This document shows, in pieces, positions 4,159 through 59,586 of a stretch of DNA of 64,000 nucleotides. The DNA is taken from positions 13,704,001 through 13,768,000 of the forward strand of contig NC_087250.1 in NCBI RefSeq assembly GCF_037042905.1. The letters run 5' to 3'. Below the pieces are notes generated by a model. It was given only the letters and a program-made list of their open reading frames with translations, made no database searches and was not told the DNA's origin. Positions within the stretch are counted from its first letter, which is position 1; each line of letters opens with the position of its first letter. This stretch comes from Lytechinus pictus (Eukaryota). The position numbers and the translations under genes were made by a program.

Positions 4159-7100
4159 TAAGCTTGTAACCGATTTTGCAATCGGCAACCGATTCCATTC
4201 GATTTCACCACAATCGGCAATCACTTGCCGATCTTCGATCATGCCCCTTGAAGGAAAAAATCGAAAATAAAAAATCGGCGTAGATCTGGTTACAGTGCGT
4301 GATCGCTCAGAACATATTTCAAGATTGTTTTTGAGGTGCTAGCTATTTAGAGGTCGCATTATTCAGGGAGAAAGTCGCGGTATTATCTATGGCAATGTTT
4401 AAGGGGATAGATATCTTCTCTTCCAACTCATGGTGATAGCGGATGCCGCCGTGAACTTTGAAAGGTCGTATTACCGACGGAGCTCACTGCGTTACTCTCT
4501 TACATCGTTTATGATTATATACATTTTATTTTCAACCTCGTGGTGATAGCGGATGCCGCCGTGAACTTTGAAAGGTCGTATTACCGACGGAGCTCACTGC
4601 GCTACTCTCTTACCCCCTTTATAATGATATAAATCTTCTCTTCAACCTCGTGGTGATAGCGGACCCCGCCATTAACTTTTAAAGACTGTACTATTGACGG
4701 AGCTTATTGCGTTGCTCTCTTACATCGTTTATGATGATATTCATTTTATTTTCAACCTCGTGGTGATAGCGGAAGCCGCCGTGAACTTTGAAAGGTCGTA
4801 TTACCGACGGAGCTCACTGCGCTACTCTCTTACATCGTTTATAATGATATAAATCTTCTCTTCAACCTCGTGGTGATAGCGGACCCCGCCAGAAACTTTT
4901 AAAGACTGTACTATTGACGGAGCTTATTGCGTTACTCTCTTACATCGTTTATGATGATTTACATTTTATTTTCAACCTCGTGGTGATAGCGGATGCCGCC
5001 GTGAACTTTGAAAGGTCGTATTACCGACGGAGCTCACTGCGCTACTCTCTTACCTCCCTTATAATGATATAAATCTTCTCTTCAACCTCGTGGTGATAGC
5101 GGACCCCGCCAGAAACTTTTAAAGACTGTACTATTGACGGAGCTTATTGCGTTACTCTCTTACATCGTTTATGATGATATACATTTTATTTTCAACCTCG
5201 TGGTGATAGCGGAAGCCGCCGTGAACTTTGAAAGGTCGTATTACCGACGGAGCTCACTGCGCTACTCTCTTACATCGTTTATAATGATATAAATCTTCTC
5301 TTCAACCTCGTGGTGATAGCGGACCCCGCCATAAACTTTTAAAGACTGTACTATTGACGGAGCTTATTGCGTTACTCTCTTACATCGTTTATGATGATAT
5401 ACATTTTATTTTCAACCTCGTGGTGATAGCGGATGCCGCCGTGAACTTTGAAAGGTCGTACTATTGACGGAGCTCATTGCGTTACTCTCTTACATCGTTT
5501 ATGATGATTTACATTTTATTTTCAACCTCGTGGTGATAGCGGACCCCGCCGTGAACTTTTAAAGATCGTGCTACTGACGGAGCTTATTGCGTTACTCTCT
5601 TACATCGTTTATGATGATATTCATTTTATTTTCAACCTCGTGGTGATAGCGGAAGCCGCCGTGAACTTTGAAAGGTCGTATTACCGACGGAGCTCACTGC
5701 GCTACTCTCTTACATCGTTTATAATGATATAAATCTTCTCTTCAACCTCGTGGTGATAGCGGACCCCGCCAGAAACTTTTAAAGACTGTACTATTGACGG
5801 AGCTTATTGCGTTACTCTCTTACATCGTTTATGATGATATACATTTTATTTTCAACCTCGTGGTGATAGCGGATGCCGCCATGAACTTTGAAAGGTCGTA
5901 CTATTGACGGAGCTCATTGCGTTACTCTCTTACATCGTTTATGATGATTTACATTTTATTTTCAACCTCGTGGTGATAGCGGAAGCCGCCGTGAACTTTG
6001 AAAGGTCGTATTACCGACGGAGCTCACTGCGCTACTCTCTTACATCGTTTATAATGATATAAATCTTCTCTTCAACCTCGTGGTGATAGCGGACCCCGCC
6101 AGAAACTTTTAAAGACTGTACTATTGACGGAGCTTATTGCGTTACTCTCTTACATCATTTATGATGATATTCATTTTATTTTCAACCTCGTGGTGATAGC
6201 GGAAGCCGCCGTGAACTTTGAAAGGTCGTATTACCGACGGAGCTCACTGCGCTACTCTCTTACATCGTTTATAATGATATAAATCTTCTCTTCAACCTCG
6301 TGGTGATAGCGGACCCCGCCAGAAACTTTTAAAGACTGTACTATTGACGGAGCTTATTGCGTTACTCTCTTACATCGTTTATGATGATTTACATTTTATT
6401 TTCAACCTCGTGGTGATAGCAGATGCCGCCGTGAACTTTGAAAGGTCGTATTACCGACGGAGCTCACTGCGCTACTCTCTTACCTCCCTTATAATGATAT
6501 AAATCTTCTCTTCAACCTCGTGGTGATAGCGGACCCCGCCGTGAACTTTTAAAGGTCGTATTACCGACGGAGCTTATTGCGTTACTCTCTTACATCGTTT
6601 ATGATGATATACATTTTATTTTCAATCTCGTGGTGATAGCGGATGCCGCCGTGAACTTTGAAAGGTCGTATTACCGACGGAGCTCACTGCGCTTCTCTCT
6701 TATCCCCTTTATGATGATAGACATCTTCTCTTCAACCTCGTGGTGATAGCGGACCCCGCCGTGAACTTCAAATTGATTTGAAAACGCTAGCTACCCAAAA
6801 CATTTTAATAACATATTTCAAATCATCGTGCGTGCTTGCGTCGTCTACTTCATTTTAATTGCACTTGCGACTTTAAGATGATGCGTCGTAAGAGATCATT
6901 CCAATAATTCTAAATCGCTAGCACCTAAAAATACTTCTAAAAGATGTCCCGCCGATCGTTCATTAACCTGTGATCTATGAGAAATATTTTCATTTTATTT
7001 TCCTTTGCGCCTTTGCTCGGAAGATGCGTCTTTCGTTTATCTTTCTAATAAAAATCACTCGGTTTATTTTAAAGCAATAACACCTCAAAACCCCTGGCTT

Positions 7101-9850: not shown

Positions 9851-10546
9851 GAAAATGAACCACATGAGCAATGGTTTGTGCATGCAGTCCTGCTCTGTCC
9901 AATGAGACACACACCCATACTATTGGATAACAGCCAATGATGTTTTATTTCATAACAATCTTACATGTATTTGTTTAAATGATGGAGGAAGTAGGAATTA
10001 TGATACAGGAAATTGGTGGAATAAATTCATTATATCTACATGTATCATGTACATGTACATCTAAGACCTTGTCTATATTGTACATGTTTCATCATTTTCC
10101 TGGACTTACATGTACAGTACATGTATCTGGTTTGGACTATTTAATTTTTGTTTGTTCTCTCTAATTTGTTCTGAGTAGAGAAAAATAATTGTGTATTGAT
10201 TTATTTCATTTTTTTGATTTTCTCAAATTATTAAATTTTGTATCACATGGCAGAGCTGCCAATTTGAAGAACTTTATCCTATTTATTAGGATTTTTACTT
10301 ACAGTAATAGGATTTCCCCGGGAATGGGATTTTTTAAACATGTTTGAATGATGATTTTTAGGTATGATTTTTTTTTAACGAAAGAAAAGTGGAAATTTAG
10401 GCTTGAAAATTGAATAAAAATTATTTTAGAATACACATTCACAAGTAAGGGTGGTAGCTCTGATAATATGGTGGAAATTTTCGATAATCAGTGAAAACAT
10501 TAATTTAGCACTTATTTTCTGATTCATTATTACCGGTATGTCCAGT

Positions 10547-10899
10547 GGAAGCGTCGTGGTGTAGCGGTTCTGACTCTCGCCTTGTAATCAGAGGGTCGTG
10601 TGTTCGATTCCCACCATGGCCTAGCGTCCTTTGGCAAGGCGTTAATCCACACTTTGCCACTCTCCACCCAGGTGTTAAATGGGTACCCGGTAGGATGGGA
10701 AAGCCTATATGTAGTATGCCTAGCAATTGAGTCGTGGAACTCTTGTTGGAATGCTCCCCAGGGAGTGGAGAAGGTGCATACATTGTATGCGGGCATGCAA
10801 GGATCCGAAGACCGGGGTAATAATATGTCTGGAAAGCGCTTAGAGACGTCGTTCCGATGTATTAAACGCTATATAAATGTGGAATATTATTATTATTAT
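10547..10899 (+). mobile_element. Full-length tRNA-derived SINE
   Basis: Pol III A box TGGTGTAGCGG and B box GTTCGATTCC; central CACCCAGGTGTTAAATGGGTACC domain; CGCTATATAAAT plus (TAT)n tail. Confidence 0.85.
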
Positions 10900-11143: not shown

Positions 11144-11160
11144 GTAAGTATTTATAGTAA

Positions 11161-11765
11161 AGGACAAGTCCACCCAAACAAAAAGTTTATTTGAATAAAT
11201 AGAGAAAAATCCAACGAGCATAACACTGAAAATTTCATCAAAATCGAATGTAAAATGAGAAAGTTATGCCATTTTTAAGTTTTGCTTAATTTCACATAAT
11301 AGTTATATGCACATCCCAGTCGGTATGCAAATGAGGGAACTGATGACATCACTCACTCACTTTTTCTTTTGTATTTTATTATAAGAAATGTGAAATATTC
11401 GAATTTTCTCCTCATTGTCCTGTGAAACAATGTTTTATTTCTCACTGAATATGTGGAATTACCATTGTTTAAAATAATATGGTTCAGTCAAGTTGGTCCT
11501 TTTTGTTAAATCTGTAAAAATTGAAATATTGTATAATTCAAACAATAAAAAAACAAAAAGAAATTGTGAGTGAGGGACATCATCGATTCTCTCATTTGCA
11601 TGTGACTAAATTGTGCATATAACTATTTTGTGAAAAATAAGCGAAACTTTAAGATGTCATAACTTTCCTGTTCTTCATCCGATTTTGATGAAATTTTCAG
11701 CATTATGCTTGTCTGATTTGTCTCTTTTGATTCAAATCAACATTTTAATGAGGTGGTCTTGTCCT
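11161..11765. mobile_element. Kolobok/T2-type MITE, family K1, 17 nt downstream of a MOB3 exon
   Basis: (G)TAA|AGGACAAGTCCACCC ... GGTCTTGTCCT|TTAA; opposite orientation to the 32-634 copy. Confidence 0.85.
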
Positions 11766-11777
11766 TTAAAACCAGTT

Positions 11778-11938
11778 GGGTGTTTCATAAAGCTGATCAT
11801 AAGTTGCGAGCGACTTTAGTAGGAATGACTAGCTATCCTTTCTTGTGGTAAATCATATACCAAATTTTCATTAATGTTGATTTTATGGGGAGGGATTACC
11901 AGGCGCTCGTAACTTACAAACAGATTTATGAAACACCC
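11778..11938. mobile_element. Short Harbinger-like MITE (relative at 61656-61818)
   Basis: GGGTGTTTCATAAA ... TTTATGAAACACCC TIRs. Confidence 0.65.
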
Positions 11939-21648: not shown

Positions 21649-22476
21649 AATTGATTCATTTTTCTTAGAATTATGCAAAATCATCATCAATTTTTGGGAA
21701 AAAATGACAAAAAATGCAGTTTTCTACGTAAAATCTCAGCCAAATGACCTACTTATCCCCTATAAATGGTACCAAATTGTAGGAAATTTATTTGTCTTTC
21801 ATATGACACTAATTTTGTGGCAATGGAATGTTTAAGTCAAAATCTATGTACGAAAATTCAAATGTTCTAAAAATTTGGCGGCCATTTTGAAAAAAGCGCC
21901 CTCACGGGTTAATTTTCAGGATACAGCCTGGTTACCTCATATATTCATATTCAGCGTAAAAAACTGATCTAGAAGCACTATATGAAAATTTATCCTTTTC
22001 CATGTGGCACCTTGCTCAATTATAACCCGGACTAAAACAGGTATTTTGTCATGTTTCCCCTATTCTGAATAACATCTCAAATATTTTACTTTAACGGTAG
22101 GGTGCAAAAGTATTCCCTTTTCCTTGATTTGGGGCAATTTTGATACCCTTTGTCACTACGAGTTCCAGCCTTGGAAACGTCCTGTGGGAGACCTCACAAG
22201 ACATCGGGGGGGGGGGGGGTAAGTATCAAAGAAGGCCCCCAAAAATGTTAAACATCACCAACATTGACCCAAATGACAGGTCAGTATGGAAGAGGGCCAT
22301 CAAGGAAGTGAACAGACCAACCCTACAAAGTGAAGAAAAAAAGACTTTGAATACTGATGATGGGGGAGGGGGGGGGGGATTAAAGCAAAGTGTCTACATT
22401 GTAATGACAGCACCCCCCCCCCCCAACCCATGAGTACAATGATGAAGCCTTATCGTTTGTCATGTTTTATTTATAG

Positions 22477-22610
22477 GTATGAATACATGTGGATGGATGG
22501 AGAGAAATATAAGAAGCCCACAGCCCTCCCTGCAACAGACTATATCAACAATCTCATGGATTGGGTCGAACAACTCATCAATAATGAGAATATATTCCCT
22601 ATTAATACAG
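22477..22610 (+). CDS. MOB3: MOB3-like coding exon ([44 protein letters not shown])
   Basis: ttatAG acceptor; GTATAG donor at 22611; 134 nt, phase consistent; conserved MOB motif. Confidence 0.95.
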
Positions 22611-22802
22611 GTATAGTTTTATTGACCATATAAACAATGCCATCGACAATGAGAATATATTCCCTATTAATACAGGTATTGTTCTATCGACCATATATTA
22701 ACATTCTCATCAACAGTGAGAAGATATGAGAAGAACGTATAGCTTGAAACCATATTCCAGCCAATAGCCAAACGCTGTGAGAGTTAAAAGATGTAATATG
22801 CG

Positions 22803-22975
22803 TAATAATGATAATAATAATAATAGTAGTAGTAGTAGTAGTAGTAGTTGTTGTAGTAACAGTAGTAGTTGTAGTAATAGTAGTAGTAGTAGTAATAGTA
22901 AGAATAATAAGAATGATAATAATAATAATGATAATGATAATAATAATAATGATGATAATAATAATAATGATAATT
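22803..22975. repeat. (AAT)n/(AGT)n/(GAT)n microsatellite
   Basis: Directly visible. Confidence 0.95.
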
Positions 22976-23044
22976 AAAATAATTTCACACTGCCATGTAA
23001 GAGTAATCCTTCACTGTTTATTTTTTTGTTTTTTCCTTTTTCAG

Positions 23045-23160
23045 AGGTTAGTTTCCCTAAATCGTTTGTCTCCACATGTAAGAAGATGCTTACAAGATTA
23101 CACAGAGTTTTCATCCACGTCTACATCCATCACTTTGATAAACTCGTTGAGATCGGAGCG
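23045..23160 (+). CDS. MOB3: MOB3-like coding exon ([39 protein letters not shown])
   Basis: Long T tract plus cAG acceptor; GTAAGT donor at 23161; 116 nt. Contains the HVYIHHF Zn-binding His motif. Missed by the ORF track because this frame lacks an upstream start. Confidence 0.95.
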
Positions 23161-24140
23161 GTAAGTGCATGAAAATCGTATTTCAATAGGGAAATAGTCA
23201 AAGTTATTGCATTGGCAAATGGATTATATAATGATGAATGTATTGATAGATAGTAGTGTCCTCAGCCATGCTTACATCCATCACTTCGAAAAACTTGTTG
23301 GGATTTTAGCAGTAAGTGCATGAAAATCATATTACAAAAATATAGATTTTAGGGGAATAGTTAAAATTATTTCATTGGCAAATGGATTATATTTATAATG
23401 CTGAATATAATGATAGATAGTGTATTCAGCCATGTTCCATCACTTCAAAAACTTGTTGGGATTTGAGCGGTAAGTGCAGGATAATCATATAACAAAAATA
23501 TAGATTTTAGGGGAATAGTAAAAATTATTGCATTGGCAAATGGATTATATTTATAATGATAGATACTGTCTCCAGCCATGTTTACATCCATCACTGCGAA
23601 AAACTTGTTGGGATTTGAGCAGTAAGTGCATGAAAATCACATTACAAAAATATAGAATTTAGGGTAATAGTTAAAATTATTGCATTGGCCGAGGGTGCAT
23701 GATGGATAGAGTTTTTCCCTATACATCGCTTTGATAAACTTGTTGAGATTGCAACGGTAAGTAGGCGTTTCAGTTTGAAATGATTTTAATGATAATAGGC
23801 ATTTGTATAGCGCCATCTATCTAGAAACAATCTATTCCGAGGCGCATTGTTATTATTACAAAATCATATTACAAAATAGATTAGAGGGGAATAGTTGAAA
23901 TTATTGCATCAGCAGAAGGTCAATATATATGCTGTCTATATTCAGATGATGAAAAGAATATTAATCCTACATTCACCACTATGGTGAACTTGCTGAGATG
24001 GGAGTGGTAAGTGAATGAAGAGCAAATAATTTAAGATTTGATGCTGGGGAAATAGTTACAAGTATAGTATATCAGGGAATAGTTAAAACTATTGCATTGG
24101 AAGAGGGTGCATTATGCTGTCTACATTCAGAAGATGAAAA
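23115..24140 (+). repeat. Tandem array (about 150-bp unit) of a MOB3 exon 3' end + donor + proximal intron
   Basis: CATCCATCACTT...AAACT.GTTG.GAT...GC.GTAAGT unit repeated; donors at 23161, 23312, 23470, 23622, 23757, 24007. Confidence 0.9.
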
Positions 24141-24308
24141 CAGTTGGTAAAGGTATATGGGCAAACTTTCATTCTTGGCGAGCTGAATGTACATGGTTCC
24201 CCTTTGCTTTATATAGCTACATCAATATTGACTTTGAAGTGATAGTTTGCATTATTAACTGAAGTCAAAATGTGATTATTTGCTTTATATTTTGTGTCTG
24301 AAACCACA

Positions 24309-24487
24309 ACTGGGCGTTGTGGCGTATGCCTGTAATCCAAGCTATGTTGGGAAGTTACAAATTGATGCAGAGGTTCGGGGTTCGAGCCCTGGTCACGTCT
24401 TTTGGATGGTGACGTTAAAGGTCGGTCTAAGACGTAAATAATCATATCTGATTGATACATGTCTGACAAAACTCAAATACACACACA
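24309..24487 (+). mobile_element. Candidate 7SL(Alu-domain)-headed SINE
   Basis: Head ACTGGGCGTTGTGGCGTATGCCTGTAATCCAAGCTA, B-box-like GGTTCGAGCCC, and a (CA)n tail. Confidence 0.65.
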
Positions 24488-24676
24488 TTTAATTATAAAA
24501 GAGGAAACCGGTTTCTATACTTCTCTCCAACTGAAATATAAAAAACTCGAGGATTCCTTTGTACATTATTATTGCACTCTAGTCTTCAATGCTTGCTTTA
24601 CTGCTAGCATTTACATGTACGTGAACTGTGTAAATTACACTTTGTCATATGATTGACTTTTGATAGCAAGATTCTT

Positions 24677-24988
24677 GGGCCTGTATTCTGAAGTCGGGTT
24701 TAACTTAAACTCAGGTTTAAAGTTGTGGTTTAAGTATGGGAAGCCAAAAGTATCAATTTTTTTTATTAAGTTGTAGGTTTCTCCTGTTTACTGTGCTCTT
24801 TCCTGATTCATCGATGGTGAAGACAATAATTTTTCATACTTCCTAGACAATTATGAATGATTTGAGAGCCAAATGAGCTGAAATATGATATCTCTATTGT
24901 TAGTGATTTATGTAACAATTGGCTGTCCATACTTAAACCACAACTTTAAACCTAAGTCTAAATTAAATCCGACTTCAGAATACGGGCC
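24677..24988. mobile_element. Harbinger-like MITE (second copy at 29355-29665)
   Basis: GGCC(T/C)GTATTCTGAAGTC ... GACTTCAGAATACGGGCC TIRs. Confidence 0.8.
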
Positions 24989-25148
24989 ATGATATGCAAA
25001 ATGTGATCATTTATACCATGCTTGTCAGTCAAATTGTCAAAATTAAGTTTCATAAATGAAAAGAAAAATATATGAACAAAAATTATTACTATGATGAAAT
25101 GATAAATGTAATGATGGTGGATTGCTGTATTTCTTTTCTTCAATACAG

Positions 25149-25235
25149 GAAGCACACATAAACACATGCTACAAACACTTTTATTTCTTTGTGCATGAGT
25201 TCAACTTGGTTGATTCAAGAGAACTAGAACCTTTG
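25149..25235 (+). CDS. MOB3: MOB3-like coding exon ([29 protein letters not shown])
   Basis: tacAG acceptor; GTAAGT donor at 25236; 87 nt, phase 0-0. Matches the MOB3 C-terminal region EAH.NTCYKHF.....EF.L.D..ELEPL. Confidence 0.95.
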
Positions 25236-25976
25236 GTAAGTAAAATGTTCCCAGGTTTCTGCAATATGGAAAACAACTTTAATAAACAGAATTCGGGAAG
25301 AATGTTTGTTACTTTTAAGTTGGTAGGTCCATATTAGATTAACAATCAGTTCACCTTGCAATTGTAGTAATAATAATAATGTTTCTGAGTTCTTTACTTC
25401 CCAAAATCCCATCAAAGCGGCCAACCATTAGATTTGTATGTAATTATTGCTGTTTTGCGATCAAAATTACAGCATTTACAATTTTTCTTCATAACATACA
25501 ATCTTCTAAAATGGTTTTTTTTTTCGAAGACAATAATATCCTATTGTTTAGAAATTGCCTCTGTAGATCGCTATTTTATAAAGCTTATGTTAGTTTAGGT
25601 AATTGTAATTTCAGGTAACCTCATTAAAGGTCAGAGGTCATTTATTGATGTGTATTTCATACTAGCATTATGAGGAATACTGAATACAGTGTCTTATTAC
25701 CATAGGTTGGCAGGTCTTGTTTTGAGGGTCATGTTGAGAAAATATTTCTTTTTTTCGTTGGAATTTTCCAAATTCTTTTTGCTGTAATGGTTCCTTTTTT
25801 TGGTCGCACAAGGATGGCAGCTCTGGCATATGCATGGACATCGTCGCGCCGGCATCTTAGAGGCTGAAGTCATTGCCTTGCATGCGTTGGTGGTCTGCAG
25901 CTGGCGCACCTGTTGCTACTCCACTTGCATATTCTTATATCCCCTGAGGGTGGGTGCAATGAGATTATGATGTCAT

Positions 25977-27723
25977 TAGGAGTGGGCTATACATGAGTCA
26001 AAAATACTTTTTTTGTCAATTTAATATGGCAACAGTTTTTATCTATTCGTTGTAATGTATCTCAACATGAAAATGACAATATTTTTTTGTCTCGGGTCCG
26101 AGAAAAAAGTGTGTTGGGCCAAAATCCAAAATGGCCGCCAAACCCCCCAAATCACAGTTTTGGCCACCATTGGTGGTCTTTTTCTCTGGTTTTGGTGTCT
26201 ATTCATATGTTTTTGGGGGGCAGGCAATCTGTTTTACCTGAAATTAGTACTTAAAAACCATTATTTGTAGGGTTAAAGGGTCATTTTACCTAAATTTACG
26301 CATTTTTAGACCCATTCTTCAGCCAAAAATTAGGTTTCATCGTCTTGTGGTTCGTGGATATTAGATGATACGAGTTCCACAATAGCAAGTAGTTTCATAT
26401 GCTACATGTATATTGCTCTTGTTCAGGAATCTACTTTGGGTTCTACAGATATTTTCAAAATGTATCTTATTAAATTAAAAAAATGTTATTTATCTATAGG
26501 GGCCATACAGTATACAATGTATTGTACATACTGCACTGCATACATGTATGTCCATGCATTGACCACCATGGCAAGGTCTACAGGTAGATCTATATAAACT
26601 ATAGTGTCATAGAATTACCTCTTCAATTAGATGCCTCAGAAATTGAAGATACTGTATGTTTTGTCTCAGAAATTAAGACATGTTTTGTCAAATATGCTCA
26701 TTCAGGGGGCGGAGAGAGGAAAATATCATTAACAATGGATTATAGTCAACCCCACATTATGGCATTTACACTGTGGCTATTCTGTTACCATTATGGTAAC
26801 TTTTTTGCCATTCAATTGTAACTTGCATGGAATCCTTGATTCTGATTGGCCGTTGATAAGCGTTACCATGGTAGTTAACTGACAATATAAATATAGGGTT
26901 AGACACAACCAGGTACATGTAAAAACAAGCCTCCAAATAAAGAAGATATGGCTAAAAATGTGATGTGCGTACATGTACATGATGTTTACACTGTATGTGC
27001 AATTTATGTTAAGCATCGGGTTACATATTTCCATCATGTATATCAGCTAACAAGCAATCAAATCCACAAGTCACAATCTAATTCTAAACCTCGGGAGCTC
27101 ACTTCTATGACACTATAGTTTATATACAGGACTTGTTATATGTCATGGAGGTCAATGCATGGATATATGCAGTGTAGTATGTACAGTACATTGTATACCA
27201 TACAGCCCCTATGGACCAATGACGTTTTCTTTTATTTGATAAAATATATTTCGCAAATATCTGTCGACCACAATTTAAAGATATTAAAGCTCTATATCTA
27301 TATGAAGCTGCTTGCTACTGTTCAACTGGTATCGTCTAATATCCAAGAACCATGAGACAATGAAACCTAATTTTTGGCTGAAAAAAGGGTCTCAAAATTA
27401 GTAAATTCAAGTAAAATCACCTTATCACTCTACAAATAATGGTTTAAAAGTACTAGTTTTAGGAAAAACAAATTGCTTGCCCATAAAAACACACAATGTA
27501 TGAATAGACACCAAAACCAGAGAAAAAGACCACCAAATAAAGAAGTTGTGGCCAAAACTGTAATTTGGGGGGTTTTGGCGGCCATTCTGGATTTTGGCCC
27601 GACACACTTTTTTCTCGGACCCGAGACAAAAAATATCATTTCATGTTGAGATAAGGTAAAAGGAATACAAAAAAACTGTTGGCACAGTAAAACCCAAAAT
27701 CACCCATTTATAGCCCACTCCTA
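25977..27723. mobile_element. Non-autonomous foldback element with ~650-bp arms and a 7-bp TSD
   Basis: ATGTCAT|TAGGAGTGGGCTATA ... TATAGCCCACTCCTA|ATGTCAT. Confidence 0.85.
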
Positions 27724-31776: not shown

Positions 31777-33157
31777 AATCTGCTTTTGATTTGTTATGTT
31801 TTAAATTTTAATGAGAAATTCCAGTTGTAACGATCTCAAACCGAGCAAAGCAGAGTCAAATTAAATGACCATCCACACGTTTGTATGTATAAATTATAAA
31901 ATATATGAAAAGCTGCTCTGGAAGGAAATGTCAAATTGATGAGAAATAAGCAAAATGAACATGGAATTCCATCAAATGTCAAGTATTTTCCAAACATTTT
32001 TAATACACTGTCCCACATGTGCTTCTCTGTGTTAGTGATCGAAGGTGTCGTCAGTTTTCAGCTAAGATTTCATGATTTTACAGAGTTAAGTGTATGTTAG
32101 TGTACCATATCTAGATCTATGATAATATGGTGACACTGAATCCTGATTCCAAGGACTCTCATGAAATAATTGTTTGCTTCAGTTAAGAAGCAGAAACGGT
32201 TCCACCAAATCATGGATTTACTTGTAAGGCCACCTTTCTTAATTTGAGCCTATGTGTTCATGTTATACACAGGAATTATCAGAAACAAGTGCAAGCAAGT
32301 TCACCTGAAACTAACTACACCAAATTATAATTCATGTTTGTTAGGAACATTTCATACTCTTTAAATAAAAATTTCATAATGTTAGTTTTAAATGAGCTGT
32401 GTTGAAAAAAGCACTTAAGTAGTGTGTAAAAGTAGATTTTATAAGAATGAATTATTCATTTATATCATTCAACATTTCGTTCAGGGTATTTACGTTGTAA
32501 AAAGTTAACCAAGGAGACTAGCCATACAATCAAGTAAGTTATTTGGTTTTAAATCGTGTTTGAATGAATGAAAAAAATTGATATGTGCTCTGTAGAAAAG
32601 TTTTCCATGTACTTTCATAAATCTTATGTATTTTCGATGAGAGATAAAGATATTTTCATAATTGTGACTTTTATGTACCGAAATCAAAGAGCCTAATCTG
32701 CAATTCTACACAGTATATGTATTGTATTGTCTATGTTATATGTACAATGTATTGTAAAGTATCACATTTTTTGCGCAGTGTATTGCACTTTTCCTAACAT
32801 TGCCTTGTCTAAAATTTCCATGCAAGATCAAAATCCCTTCAAAAATCTAATTTCTCGAGTTGCTCATCAAGTGCTATTGTACCTATGTCAAAGTTATCTT
32901 GTACAGGTATTTACTTTATGTTTATTAGAGAGTATGATGTTTATTTATGATGTGTTTCCTTGAGGTTTTATACAGTTATTCTTCTGAAAAATTACTTGGT
33001 CCCGTTTCATAAAGACTTGTTACAAGAACAAATGCACAATTTTTATAGCAAATTTACCATCATCCAATCAGATTGAAGGATTTCAGTAGCTTTTAACTGT
33101 TATTTCAAATTTGTTATTGAAACAAGATTTATGAAACTGACCGCAGATACATTGCTG

Positions 33158-33270
33158 CAGTGGCAGACCATGACCCGGAGGAGACAAAGCATTGGAGGGG
33201 CACTGTAAAGTTTGTGAACAATGCTGTGCCCCCCAATGCTTTGTCTCCTCCGGGTCACGGTCCGCCACTG
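33158..33270. mobile_element. 113-bp hairpin hAT-like MITE
   Basis: CATTGCTG|CAGTGGC...GCCACTG|CATTGCTA (TSD matches at 7 of 8); near-perfect stem of about 45 bp. Confidence 0.8.
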
Positions 33271-33362
33271 CATTGCTACTCATATCATGTATTGTTACTA
33301 TTTGCACATTATCATATTATTGCGAATACTTCTGATATATTGAATAAAGATTAAGAACATTA

Positions 33363-34991
33363 GGGGCCTGTTTCTCAACACATGGACAAGTTAGTCATAT
33401 CTTTATCCACCAACCACGGAGTTAGTTCCAATCTTACTAAACCTGTTTCACAAAAGGCTTCCTAACTAGAATACCTTGATATCAACCTGTCGGTAGAAAA
33501 AACAGACGAGACGTAGCCTTAGTCACAAACTAGCATAATTTTCAAAAAGAAAAATTATGACAAAATTGCAAATATTGTGATGAATTGGGAAATACATCTT
33601 TTCAAAATAATAGCACAGATGAACTATGCATCATACATACTTAGTCCATGAAGACTGGAGCATTCAATTGCTGAGAAAATTAAATTATGAATAATTAATT
33701 TCATGACTAAAAAATCTCTTGTGGACGTTGAGATGGGTACCCCCGGGATATCCAATTTTAATAGTTTAGGAAAGTAAACCATAGCGGTTTTCTTTGTAAA
33801 ATGATGATAATTATACGGTCTTTTACGCTTCCAAACATCATCAAAATATAGTTTAACGAAACATTTTAAAATCTTTGATACCAAAACATACGATATTTGA
33901 CAAATTATATGCATAAATTAGAGATAGAATTTATCCAACTGTTAAAGGACAAGTCCACCCCAGCGAAAAGTTCATTTGAATAAAAAGATAAAAATCCAAT
34001 AAGCATAACACTGAAAATTTCATCAAAATCGGATGTAAAATAAGAAAGTTATGACATTTTAAAGTTTCGCTTTATTTCACAAAACAGTTATATGCACATC
34101 CTGGTCCATATGCAAATGAGGAGACTGATGACATCATCCACTCACTATTTCTTTTGTATTTCATTATATGAAATAATCTAATTTTCTCCTCTTTGTCAAG
34201 TGAAAAAACGATTAATTCCTCCATGAACATGTGGAATTAGCATTGTTTAATACTATATGGTTCAGTCAAGTTGGTCCTTACTGTCAAATCTGAAAAAAAT
34301 TAAATATTGTATATTTCAAACAATAGAAAACAAAAGAAATAGTGAGTGAGGGACATCATCGACCGTCTCATTTGCATGTCACTGAGATGTGCATATCACT
34401 GTTTTGTGAAAAATAAGCGAAACTTTAAAATGTCATAACTTTCTTATTTTACATCCGATTTTGATGAAATTTTCAGCATTATGCTAGTTTGATTTTTCTC
34501 TATTTATTCAAATCAACATTTTCTGGGGTGGACTTGACCTTTAATAAGGGTCTGAAAACAACAAATAAGAGTCCAGTTATGGATGGCCTGATGTGGTAGA
34601 ATCTTTATCGATTAAATTATTTTACTATTTCAAAATGAATGGTATTGTGGCGTTTTACCAACAGTTTTTATAGTTTCTTTGTATTACAATTATCATTGAA
34701 TGCATTATTCCACTTGTTTTGTGATGTAATTTCAACCTCTATGATTGATTACGTGAGATTATAATTTAAAAATTTCTAGGCACTTTTGCATGTCATAGTC
34801 TACCCACGTGATGCCACTATGTCATTAAGAAAGAAGTTATGACAGGTTCGGAGGTGTCATAAATATTTAGTGAAGTTGTTGTACTCGATCTTGGTAAAGA
34901 GGGCTTCGTGAAACGATTAGCGGACAAGTAGCTCACTATCTCCGATTTAGTCAAGAAGTTAGACTTATGACGGTGTTGAGAAACAGGCCCC
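33363..34991. mobile_element. Harbinger-like non-autonomous element hosting a K1 MITE
   Basis: GGGGCCTGTTTCTCAACAC ... GTGTTGAGAAACAGGCCCC; perfect 19-bp TIR. Confidence 0.8.
33946..34540. mobile_element. Kolobok/T2-type MITE, family K1 (nested)
   Basis: TTAA|AGGACAAGTCCACCCC ... GGGGTGGACTTGACCT|TTAA. Confidence 0.9.
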
Positions 34992-36589: not shown

Positions 36590-36780
36590 CCTGACTGCTA
36601 AGAAAGCACGAATGCCTGTGAGCAAGCAACCAGAGGACCGACGGCTTAAGGTCCTCTCCGAGGGACCTGGTAATGAGGATAAATGCCTTACCAAAGGGCA
36701 CTAGCGCACCACGTGGGAATCGAACCCGGGTCACCGGAATCCGAAACCCCCGCTCTACCGACTGAGCTATCGCGCCTCCC
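36590..36780 (-). mobile_element. tRNA-derived SINE (third family)
   Basis: Reverse complement reads GGAGGCGCGATAGCTCAGTCGGTAGAGCG...GGGTTCGATTCCC, followed by a non-tRNA body (CCCTTTGGTAAGGCATTTATCC...). Confidence 0.8.
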
Positions 36781-52003: not shown

Positions 52004-52278
52004 GGAAGCGCCGTGGTGTAATCAGAGGGTCGTGTGTTCGAATCCCACCATGGCCTAGCGTCCTTTGGCAAGGCGTCAATCCACACTTTGCCACTCTCAC
52101 CCAGGTGCTGATTGGGTACCGGTAGGAAACAACCGTCATTGTGGTTGGTTTAGCAAGTTTGCGCCTTACAGGCTGCTTGAAATGCTATGAATCCAGTGAC
52201 CGGGTAATAATAATTGTGAAGCGCTTTGAACAGTCGTAGATTGATAAAGCGCTATATAAATGCCAATTATTATTATCA
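52004..52278 (+). mobile_element. tRNA-derived SINE, same head family as 10547, with a 23-bp head deletion
   Basis: Near-identical B box and body; AGCGCTATATAAAT plus (TAT)n tail. Confidence 0.85.
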
Positions 52279-57409: not shown

Positions 57410-58070
57410 TTTGGAGCCGCTTGTCTGACGGCAGCGGCGTCTTCAACATTGAAATCTTGACCAACTTTAAGTTTTTGAAATGTCATAACTTAGAAAGTAT
57501 GCGGACTTTTTCATGAGCTTGGACATACGAGTAATCAAGTATCACTGAACATCCTGCCTAAGTTTCAGGATACATGACCAAGGTCAAAGGTCATTTAGGG
57601 TCAATGAACTCAAACTGTTTTGGGGGGATCAACATTGAAATCTTAAACAAGGTTAGGTATTTGTAATGTTATAACTTTGAAAGTATATGGATCTAGTTAA
57701 TGAAATTTGGATGTAAGAGTAATCAAGTATCACTGATTGTCTTTCATGATCAAGGTCAAAGGTCATTTAGGTCAATGAACTTTGACCGTGTTGGGGGTAT
57801 TTGTTGAAATGCTGTCAAAACTTTGAAAGACCATGGATTTAGTTCATGAAAACATGGGCATAAGGGTAGTCAAATATCACCTATTGCCTTGCACAAGTCT
57901 TTGGTCACATGATCAAGGTCATTTAGGGTCAGTGAGCTTAGTAATTCATTGTCATATGATTGGTATTTTTTGTAAATGAATCTTCATCTTAGTTGTTTTC
58001 TAAGTCAGCACTGCTGCAGTATCAAATCGCGTAATGCAGGTGAGTCTGCCAGAGGCTTTCCACTTGTTTC
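57410..58070 (+). mobile_element. Non-autonomous repeat with internal GGTCAAAGGTCA-containing tandem units (possibly Helentron/HINE-like)
   Basis: About 3 internal ~180-bp units; ends in GCAGGTGAG...GCCAGAGGC..TCCACTTGTT; T-rich flanks. Classification is tentative. Confidence 0.5.
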
Positions 58071-58122
58071 TGCATTCTACTTGTTTACCAAATCGCTTTG
58101 ATCTCTCAAATTTTTCTTCTAG

Positions 58123-58258
58123 ATATGGTCTACCAGTCAACTTCCAGCCCATGATACTACAACCTTACAAGAAAACGCAAAAGAAAATGAGGGAGGTCCT
58201 AAACACGCTCTACGGCCATTTAGACGGAAGCAACATTACAGCCAAAGATGCAAAAGTG
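58123..58258 (+). CDS. ATP6V1C: V-ATPase C coding exon 10 (YGLPVNFQPMILQPYKKTQKKMREVLNTLYGHLDGSNITAKDAKV)
   Basis: ttctAG acceptor; GTAAGT donor at 58259; 136 nt; YGLPVNFQ motif. Confidence 0.95.
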
Positions 58259-59586
58259 GTAAGTATGATTAGGTTGTGCTATAAAACGGGTTCAAGGATG
58301 TAGCCATGGGCATCAGAGCAAAGGATTATATTTTGGTATTGGTGAAACATTTATTGCACCTCCCCCATGCACAAAAGATAATCCTCTGCGCTGACGCCCA
58401 TGGATGTAGCTAATATCAAGTGGGCATACAAGCCTTGCGTCCATGCTTTATTTCTATAATTGTTTCTTTATGCCTTGTTTTTGGGGTGCAGTGCTGCATG
58501 TGATATATAATATAATATAATAATTCTTCAAAGGAAAGGTTATGCCCCAAGGATTTTGACGTGCTTGCTCAGGCGCGCATACTGGATATGCCTGTCACGT
58601 CACTATAGCAGGAGCCAGATGTGATCTCTTCTTTTTTGCAATCCTAGCAAACAAATTATGCAGAGACCTAGTAATCACTTTTCCTGTTAGTCTGTCGGTC
58701 TGTTACAAATATGTTTTTGTTTTACTTGCTCTCATTATGTTCGCACTTCCTACAAACGATCCTTGGGTAATACCTCATTTGTTTTCAAGAGGATGATTTG
58801 ATGGGTCAAAAGGTAAAATGATATGAGGCCATGTCTATCCTTTTTCAAAGGTTTTGTTTAACTTGCTCTCATTTCTTTAATTTTTTTAACATCAATTGTG
58901 ATCACAATTGGTACAAATGATACTTGTGTAATACCCCATGTGTGTTCATGAGGATAATGAGGCCAATGGTCACTTAGAGGTCAAAAGATCATATTGCATA
59001 TTTCATTGATTGCAAAATTGGGAGACTCATGATTCCGTATCACGGTGTATAAAATAAATTATGCGTATTGTTTATAATCACTTGGTTTATAAACAGTTGG
59101 TCTACTTCCCACATAGTCCTATCATCATTTATATGTACTGTAGACAGTCCTGCTTTTTGTAATCAATAATGGTTTATGTATGGAATACCAGTTTGCCTGT
59201 TTTGAAATTATCCCTCACTCCTCATAACATGCGTCCAAGTCTAATGTCTTTTTTGAGATAGGCTGCAGAGCACTTTTAAGATTATAGCAGATGATGATGA
59301 TGATGATGATGATTGTCTCTGTGTCAGGCAATCATCTAAGAGTTTCCTGTCAGTGGGGTTTGAGATTTTGGTCAAATTATCTTTATCTGCACATGTGCAG
59401 ATCGTATCAACGAACTGGCCTATTTGCTGAGTTTTCATACATCCTTCTCATTCTCTCTCTATTCTCTTCTTGATTTATCATTATTATTTGAGTGTGTTCA
59501 TAACAGCTTCTGAAATCTTATGTTCTTTCTTGCCTTTCAGATAAATTTTTTCATATAAATTTATCTGATAGCTTTATCTGAAAATA

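Follow-up and report, generated by a model that had tools for sequence, protein, structure and literature searches.

In a 64,000-nt stretch of Lytechinus pictus DNA (hereafter the window), we found a 179-nt SINE-type element at 24309–24487, inside an intron of a MOB3-like gene, whose head derives from the 5' Alu domain of 7SL RNA and whose body belongs to a tRNA-type SINE. The element is probably a decayed single copy from a multi-copy sea-urchin SINE family that was born by head replacement. A first-pass annotation had described a head, a B-box-like motif, a body and a tail at this place, and all four were present as quoted; its further claims that the window holds one copy and that no clear target-site duplication (TSD) is visible were both borne out. 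BLAST and nhmmer agreed on a single copy in the 64-kb window, where the body profile gave no second match at E<0.8. A search of the flanks for exact repeats found none longer than 6 nt, the best 6-nt ones did not abut both ends, and a 4-nt CA overlap at the two element ends was indistinguishable from chance.

The head (24309–24355; like all parts of the element, on the plus strand) corresponds to about nt 1–47 of 7SL/SRP RNA, the 5' Alu domain. The first-pass annotation had proposed a comparison with the metazoan SRP model, and such a scan, of the region 22000–27000 (5 kb) against all 4227 Rfam families, returned Metazoa_SRP (RF00017) as the top match over 24309–24403, with 31.6 bits, well under the gathering score of 70, and an E of 1.6e-5 (2e-4 when the whole window was taken). 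The match was concentrated in the first 48 nt, with identity at 35/45 of the first consensus positions by our own count on the alignment, and 223 model positions were left unaligned. A 7SL RNA gene, full-length at ~300 nt and with an S domain, was ruled out by this score and these unaligned positions, as the first-pass annotation had already held; the 28/36 identities it counted are arithmetically right for the human 7SL string that it quoted. Its description of an Alu-domain head applies to the 5' half that is present and not to the other half, which is absent: 7SL homology stops at nt ~47, and the two Alu-domain halves were not both kept. The stretch that Rfam fitted to the 3' end of the model also occurs in tRNA-headed relatives without an SRP match. 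Because the B-box arm is common to these relatives, we rejected it as a 7SL 3' end and place the end of 7SL homology at about nt 47, the rest being better explained as a T-arm followed by a core.

All listed pair positions of the Alu 5' domain (16/16) can pair in the head, covering the terminal helix, two hairpins and three loop-loop pairs, although the shuffle control for these 16 pairs was not clean, the positions having been chosen partly from the predicted fold. For the loop-loop pairs we assumed positions according to the human numbering. The two hairpins form the minimum-energy fold, with an energy no better than that of shuffles (z 0.12), and the terminal helix can pair, with both of its strands altered against the Rfam consensus. 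Nucleotides 23–27 of the element carry what we take to be the motif of the SRP9/14 site, UGUNR. A U9–A18 pair was considered as compensatory and dropped, since P0008–P0010, three of the translated records of other copies described below, keep the consensus G at position 18, which points to decay in the window copy. The putative Pol III A box (24313–24322) occupies a 7SL-like position and shows 2/10 differences from the human box printed in PMC7245038. When the head was compared by eye with the consensus of the hagfish element SINE1-1_EBu, 26/30 of the first nucleotides were identical.

The body has relatives in metagenomes. A 17-nt body pattern hit 93 loci there, of which three were true relatives and the other 90, matching the seed only, were dropped. 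The three lie on metagenome contigs at ~325–485 (L066), ~170–370 (L082) and ~300–481 (L044), combine one and the same core and hairpin with heads that differ between them, and are identical to the element at 87% over 110 nt, 84% over 94 and 79% over 106, respectively. From the B-box arm onwards, through a Deu-like core and a 3' hairpin to a CA tail, the element and these three copies correspond in register. The 5' parts of the relatives look tRNA-like in type by eye and did not align with the 7SL-derived head (p 0.36–0.92); none of the three gave an Rfam match at E<=1, and ARAGORN, likewise Rfam, called no tRNA in the element or in the three relatives.

Immediately behind the 7SL junction, which forms its left edge, lies a spacer (24356–24378) that appears to be the 3' half of a tRNA-type SINE head. 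It aligned to L082 with a score of 22, reached by 0.3% of 5000 shuffles (p 0.003), and showed no significant alignment to L066 or L044. The putative Pol III B box (24379–24389) is of the tRNA T-arm type and stands exactly 25 nt ahead of the body anchor, both here and in 3/3 tRNA-headed relatives. The B-box-like motif of the first-pass annotation is thereby confirmed and its origin refined to a tRNA-type SINE instead of 7SL, whereas the 'unrelated' body of the same annotation proved to be a misnomer: it starts with a Deu-like (Nin/Inv) core shared with tRNA-headed SINEs. This core (24392–24428) resembles the first ~37 nt of the domain, and 26/37 columns were identical in a by-eye alignment with AmnSINE1_HS, taken from the domain as printed in the PMC7245038 supplement; the remaining ~100 nt of the domain printed there have no counterpart in the element. 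The core is followed by a 3' hairpin (24430–24464), a candidate LINE-recognition element, which structure prediction gave for the window copy, for L066 and for the consensus of the four sequences; among these four, 0/25 pairs were changed on both sides. The hairpin loop of L082 carries a 9-nt duplication. A CA-repeat tail at 24479–24487 completes the element; the (CA)n tail reported earlier is thus real, and consists of four units only. Tails of CA were also present in L066 and the translated records, and L082 ends in an ACCA repeat.

Further copies of the chimera were sought in protein collections, where spurious ORFs read through the antisense strand of the element, so that these copies are known as translated ORFs from ENA assemblies and not as DNA. 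A 39-residue body-side query gave 5 matches among 1.84 billion representatives, and follow-up queries from the body-side regions of P0008 and P0009 gave 4/7 candidates each, with 0 and 3 new; the P0009 query includes the spacer and favours that variant. Of the resulting records, 6/8 (P0008, P0009, P0010, P0013, P0014 and P0015) run into the head at the same junction, reach element nt 1–5 and then pass into different flanks, and the other two (P0011 and P0012) do not continue into the head. The agreement within the head is far beyond background: P0008 has 2 mismatches in 12 codons, where the background mean is 20.6 and the minimum in 20,000 draws is 9, and P0009 and P0010 have 3 mismatches in 10 codons each against a mean of 17.3. 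P0009 and P0010 have 60 residues in common across the element and diverge beyond the tail. Two variants share the junction, one comprising the window copy and P0008 and the other the remaining five head-bearing records. The 5' flank of P0008 weakly resembles that of the window (P 0.03 for the proximal part and 0.0025 for the distal part, with no excess over all 22 codons), and P0008 may be the same locus in another individual, leaving five other loci. Exact-pattern scans gave 0 hits in viral contigs, in prokaryote genomes and, for the head-plus-body pattern, in metagenomes. Because head, body and tail recur as a unit with different flanks and a constant junction, this is, on the sequence evidence, an interspersed chimeric family with two variants, which supports the earlier proposal that an invertebrate genome carries a chimeric SINE headed by a 7SL Alu domain.

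The window copy itself bears marks of decay. Within the head, P0008 has other bases at positions 18, 19 and 37, and positions 95, 120, 121 and 152 set the window copy apart from the ORF records. The change at nt 95 creates a T4 run (24400–24403), the sole T-run of the element and private to this copy: the site is C in all three of L066, L082 and L044, and in the ORFs a C is fixed in 4/5 and ambiguous in 1/5. Pol III transcription of Alu ends at four or more T, and a T4 at this place would probably stop the polymerase at nt ~95 and make a full transcript unlikely. The window copy is thus probably dead as a source on account of its internal T4.

The element lies in sense orientation in the intron at 23161–25148 of the MOB3-like gene. 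The exons of this gene (about 22477–22613, 23045–23160 and 25149–25235, plus strand) were placed by Pfam Mob1_phocein matches on 3/3 pieces and by splice sites, and the first piece is 95% identical to Strongylocentrotus purpuratus MOB3B-like, the other 6 matches being at <=73%, which marks the host as a sea urchin or a close relative. At 23100–24140 there is a ~155-bp tandem array, with 3.2 copies (TRF) at 23187–23689 and fragments to ~24140; it seems to be a decayed repetition of the 3' portion, splice donor included, of the MOB3 exon that stops at 23160. Several other repeats were seen in the window. A tRNA-headed SINE with an (ATT)n tail lies at about 10545–10890 on the plus strand, with a fragment again near 52017–52127, and an ARAGORN 'tRNA-Arg' at about 36600–36775 on the minus strand, with a Deu-like motif in the body behind it, is probably another tRNA-type SINE head. 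A repeat of ~610 bp, MITE-like and self-matching in reverse, is present in three copies (25–638, 11155–11779 and 33935–34547); a big tandem array with 110/220-bp periodicity occupies 4397–6768; and a long near-perfect hairpin at 33155–33273, with weak scores against several miRNA models, is perhaps a small inverted-repeat element. A V-ATPase subunit C exon lies at 58004–58303.

We propose that the family would have arisen by a fusion in which some 47 nt of 7SL RNA, namely its 5' Alu domain with the A box, came to stand before the 3' half of a tRNA-type SINE; this SINE would have supplied the B box, a short Deu-like core, the 3' hairpin and the CA tail. By what is known of SINE biology, intact copies would be transcribed by Pol III from the hybrid A+B promoter, the head would fold, bind SRP9/14 and carry the RNA to ribosomes, and a LINE enzyme would recognise the 3' hairpin or tail and insert the element by target-primed reverse transcription. 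Put more fully, and as a tentative reading that we hold to be possible but short of probable, the element would be a natural 'SA46' SINE, named after the engineered domain compared below: an invertebrate lineage would have independently cut 7SL down to its SRP9/14-binding 5' domain, with the 7SL A box and a tRNA-derived B box together replacing the missing promoter, and would have kept the head for SRP9/14-mediated ribosome targeting despite a LINE partner that is not L1 and recognises a hairpin. The family would be an undescribed one with at least two subfamilies.

The main rival departs from this explanation in the functional step only. It accepts a real family and makes the head merely an A-box donor or a neutral passenger, SRP9/14 binding being irrelevant to mobility, a plausible though somewhat doubtful account. 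In its favour, the A box shares its 47 nt with the structure, the folding energy has no significant z-score, the U9–A18 pair reflects decay, and a young head would pair simply as 7SL does. Against it, the junction coincides with the end of the 5' domain, well past the A box; pairing is possible throughout the terminal helix, the two hairpins and the loop-loop contacts; and hagfish SINE1 also retains the fold (PMC7245038). A different objection concerns novelty and leaves the anatomy as it is. The family might already stand in Repbase or Dfam as a tRNA-SINE, such as a SINE2-n_SP entry, with the 7SL head overlooked or noted, which we think unlikely. Several SINE2-n_SP sea-urchin families exist, all listed as tRNA-derived and one of them a Deu-SINE, and a 47-nt head would miss the 60-nt 7SL overlap used by SINEBase; yet a 2026 paper (PMC13023118), in its accessible text, limits 7SL SINEs to supraprimates, hagfish and the shrew mole, and neither of the body motifs gtgacgttaaa and gacgtaaataat occurred in the paper supplements searched for them.

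Two further accounts were weighed. According to one, the chimeras are one-off or low-copy products of template switching, comparable to U6/L1 pseudogenes, in which 7SL cDNA and a tRNA-SINE met in single insertions with no self-propagating family behind them. The single copy in 64 kb, the existence of tRNA-headed partners and the small number of head-bearing records, just 6, would be in keeping with this, but independent switches should vary in their junctions, whereas one junction occurs in all 6 records and both variants, and P0009 and P0010, though from different loci, do not differ across the element; we regard such an origin as very improbable. Chance resemblance to 7SL, or contamination by a human Alu, is scarcely credible even with an Rfam score under the gathering cut-off, for the whole-window E is 2e-4 against all families, the element sits in a sea-urchin intron joined to a non-Alu body, and the same head appears again in other assemblies.

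Measured against the general descriptions of SINEs, the element gives a mixed picture. Its 5' part comes from 7SL RNA as in SINE1 (35/45 RF00017 positions, at a sub-gathering score), and it is short, interspersed and non-tandem as SINEBase describes (179 nt, with at least 5 other head-bearing records in different flanks). It also carries the two putative Pol III boxes described above. On the other hand, the two Alu-domain parts of SINE1 are not both present, the ~47-nt 7SL part is shorter than the >=60 nt over which SINEBase expects >=60% identity to tRNA, 5S or 7SL, and the TSD general to SINEs was not found. The element would work like a SINE1 but lacks two listed features, both Alu halves and the 60-nt overlap, and so we do not count it as a member of a described family.

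According to the accessible text of the 2026 paper, 7SL SINEs are exceptional and known only from supraprimates/Euarchontoglires, hagfish and the shrew mole, all of the central-deletion type (PMC13023118); the first-pass annotation had correctly named Euarchontoglires and hagfish as hosts and lacked the shrew-mole Urop. No 7SL-headed SINE was reported from an invertebrate in the literature searched, which covered few subscription titles, mostly by listing, and within that literature the sea-urchin family would be the first 7SL SINE outside vertebrates and the first without the central-deletion design. As described in the text available for PMC13023118, the Euarchontoglires families Alu, FLAM, B1 and Tu, and Urop from the shrew mole, resemble the element in starting with the 5' Alu domain and its A box, but they have a central 7SL deletion, keep both Alu-domain halves and rely on L1 by way of a poly(A) tail; Euarchontoglires SINE1 retain 7SL 1–63, 76–83 and 267–299 (PMC7245038). 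Known 7SL SINEs, as far as the accessible sources describe them, keep the 7SL B box, and the sea-urchin element borrows that of a tRNA. The 7SL-tRNA dimers of rodents and tree shrews join whole units (accessible text of PMC13023118), whereas here half-heads of two RNAs make up one promoter.

A close natural parallel, SINE1-1_EBu of the hagfish Eptatretus burgeri (PMC7245038), likewise set an independent 7SL head on an older tRNA-SINE and has a simple-repeat tail other than poly(A). It keeps 7SL 1–96, including the B box of 7SL, as well as the 3' end of that RNA, in contrast to the nt ~1–47 and tRNA-type B box of the sea-urchin element, and has a bipartite RTE tail and TSDs of ~17 bp, where the sea-urchin element has a Deu-like body and neither a TSD nor an RTE segment was seen (PMC7245038). 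With the Deu/Nin/Inv SINEs (AmnSINE1, EbuSINE1 and SINE2-3_SP) the element appears to share the first ~37 nt of the core, and swapping of heads and tails is typical of this group; the members described in the accessible parts of PMC4824008, PMC4758252, PMC5804259 and PMC3747384 are tRNA- or 5S-headed, however, and the element would carry only the start of the domain. As the tRNA-headed relatives have the same body and tail, head swaps would be a clean test of whether SRP9/14 recruitment benefits a SINE outside the L1/poly(A) system.

A further comparison is with SA46, an engineered 46-nt 5' Alu domain that, in the text available for PMC12199147, binds SRP9/14 and reaches 86% of Alu-level retrotransposition in HeLa-HA cells. 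It is the same ~46-nt 5' domain as the head of the element and was sufficient for one round of retrotransposition, but SA46 lacks a B box and was CMV-driven (PMC12199147, accessible text), whereas the B box of the sea-urchin element comes from a SINE of tRNA type. The family would bear directly on the conjecture offered in that 2025 work, as far as its text was available, that a 46-nt Alu 5' domain is enough for mobilisation and that truncated 7SL had no evolutionary success because it lacked a B box or internal promoter (PMC12199147). The sea-urchin element looks like that missing case, with its B box borrowed.
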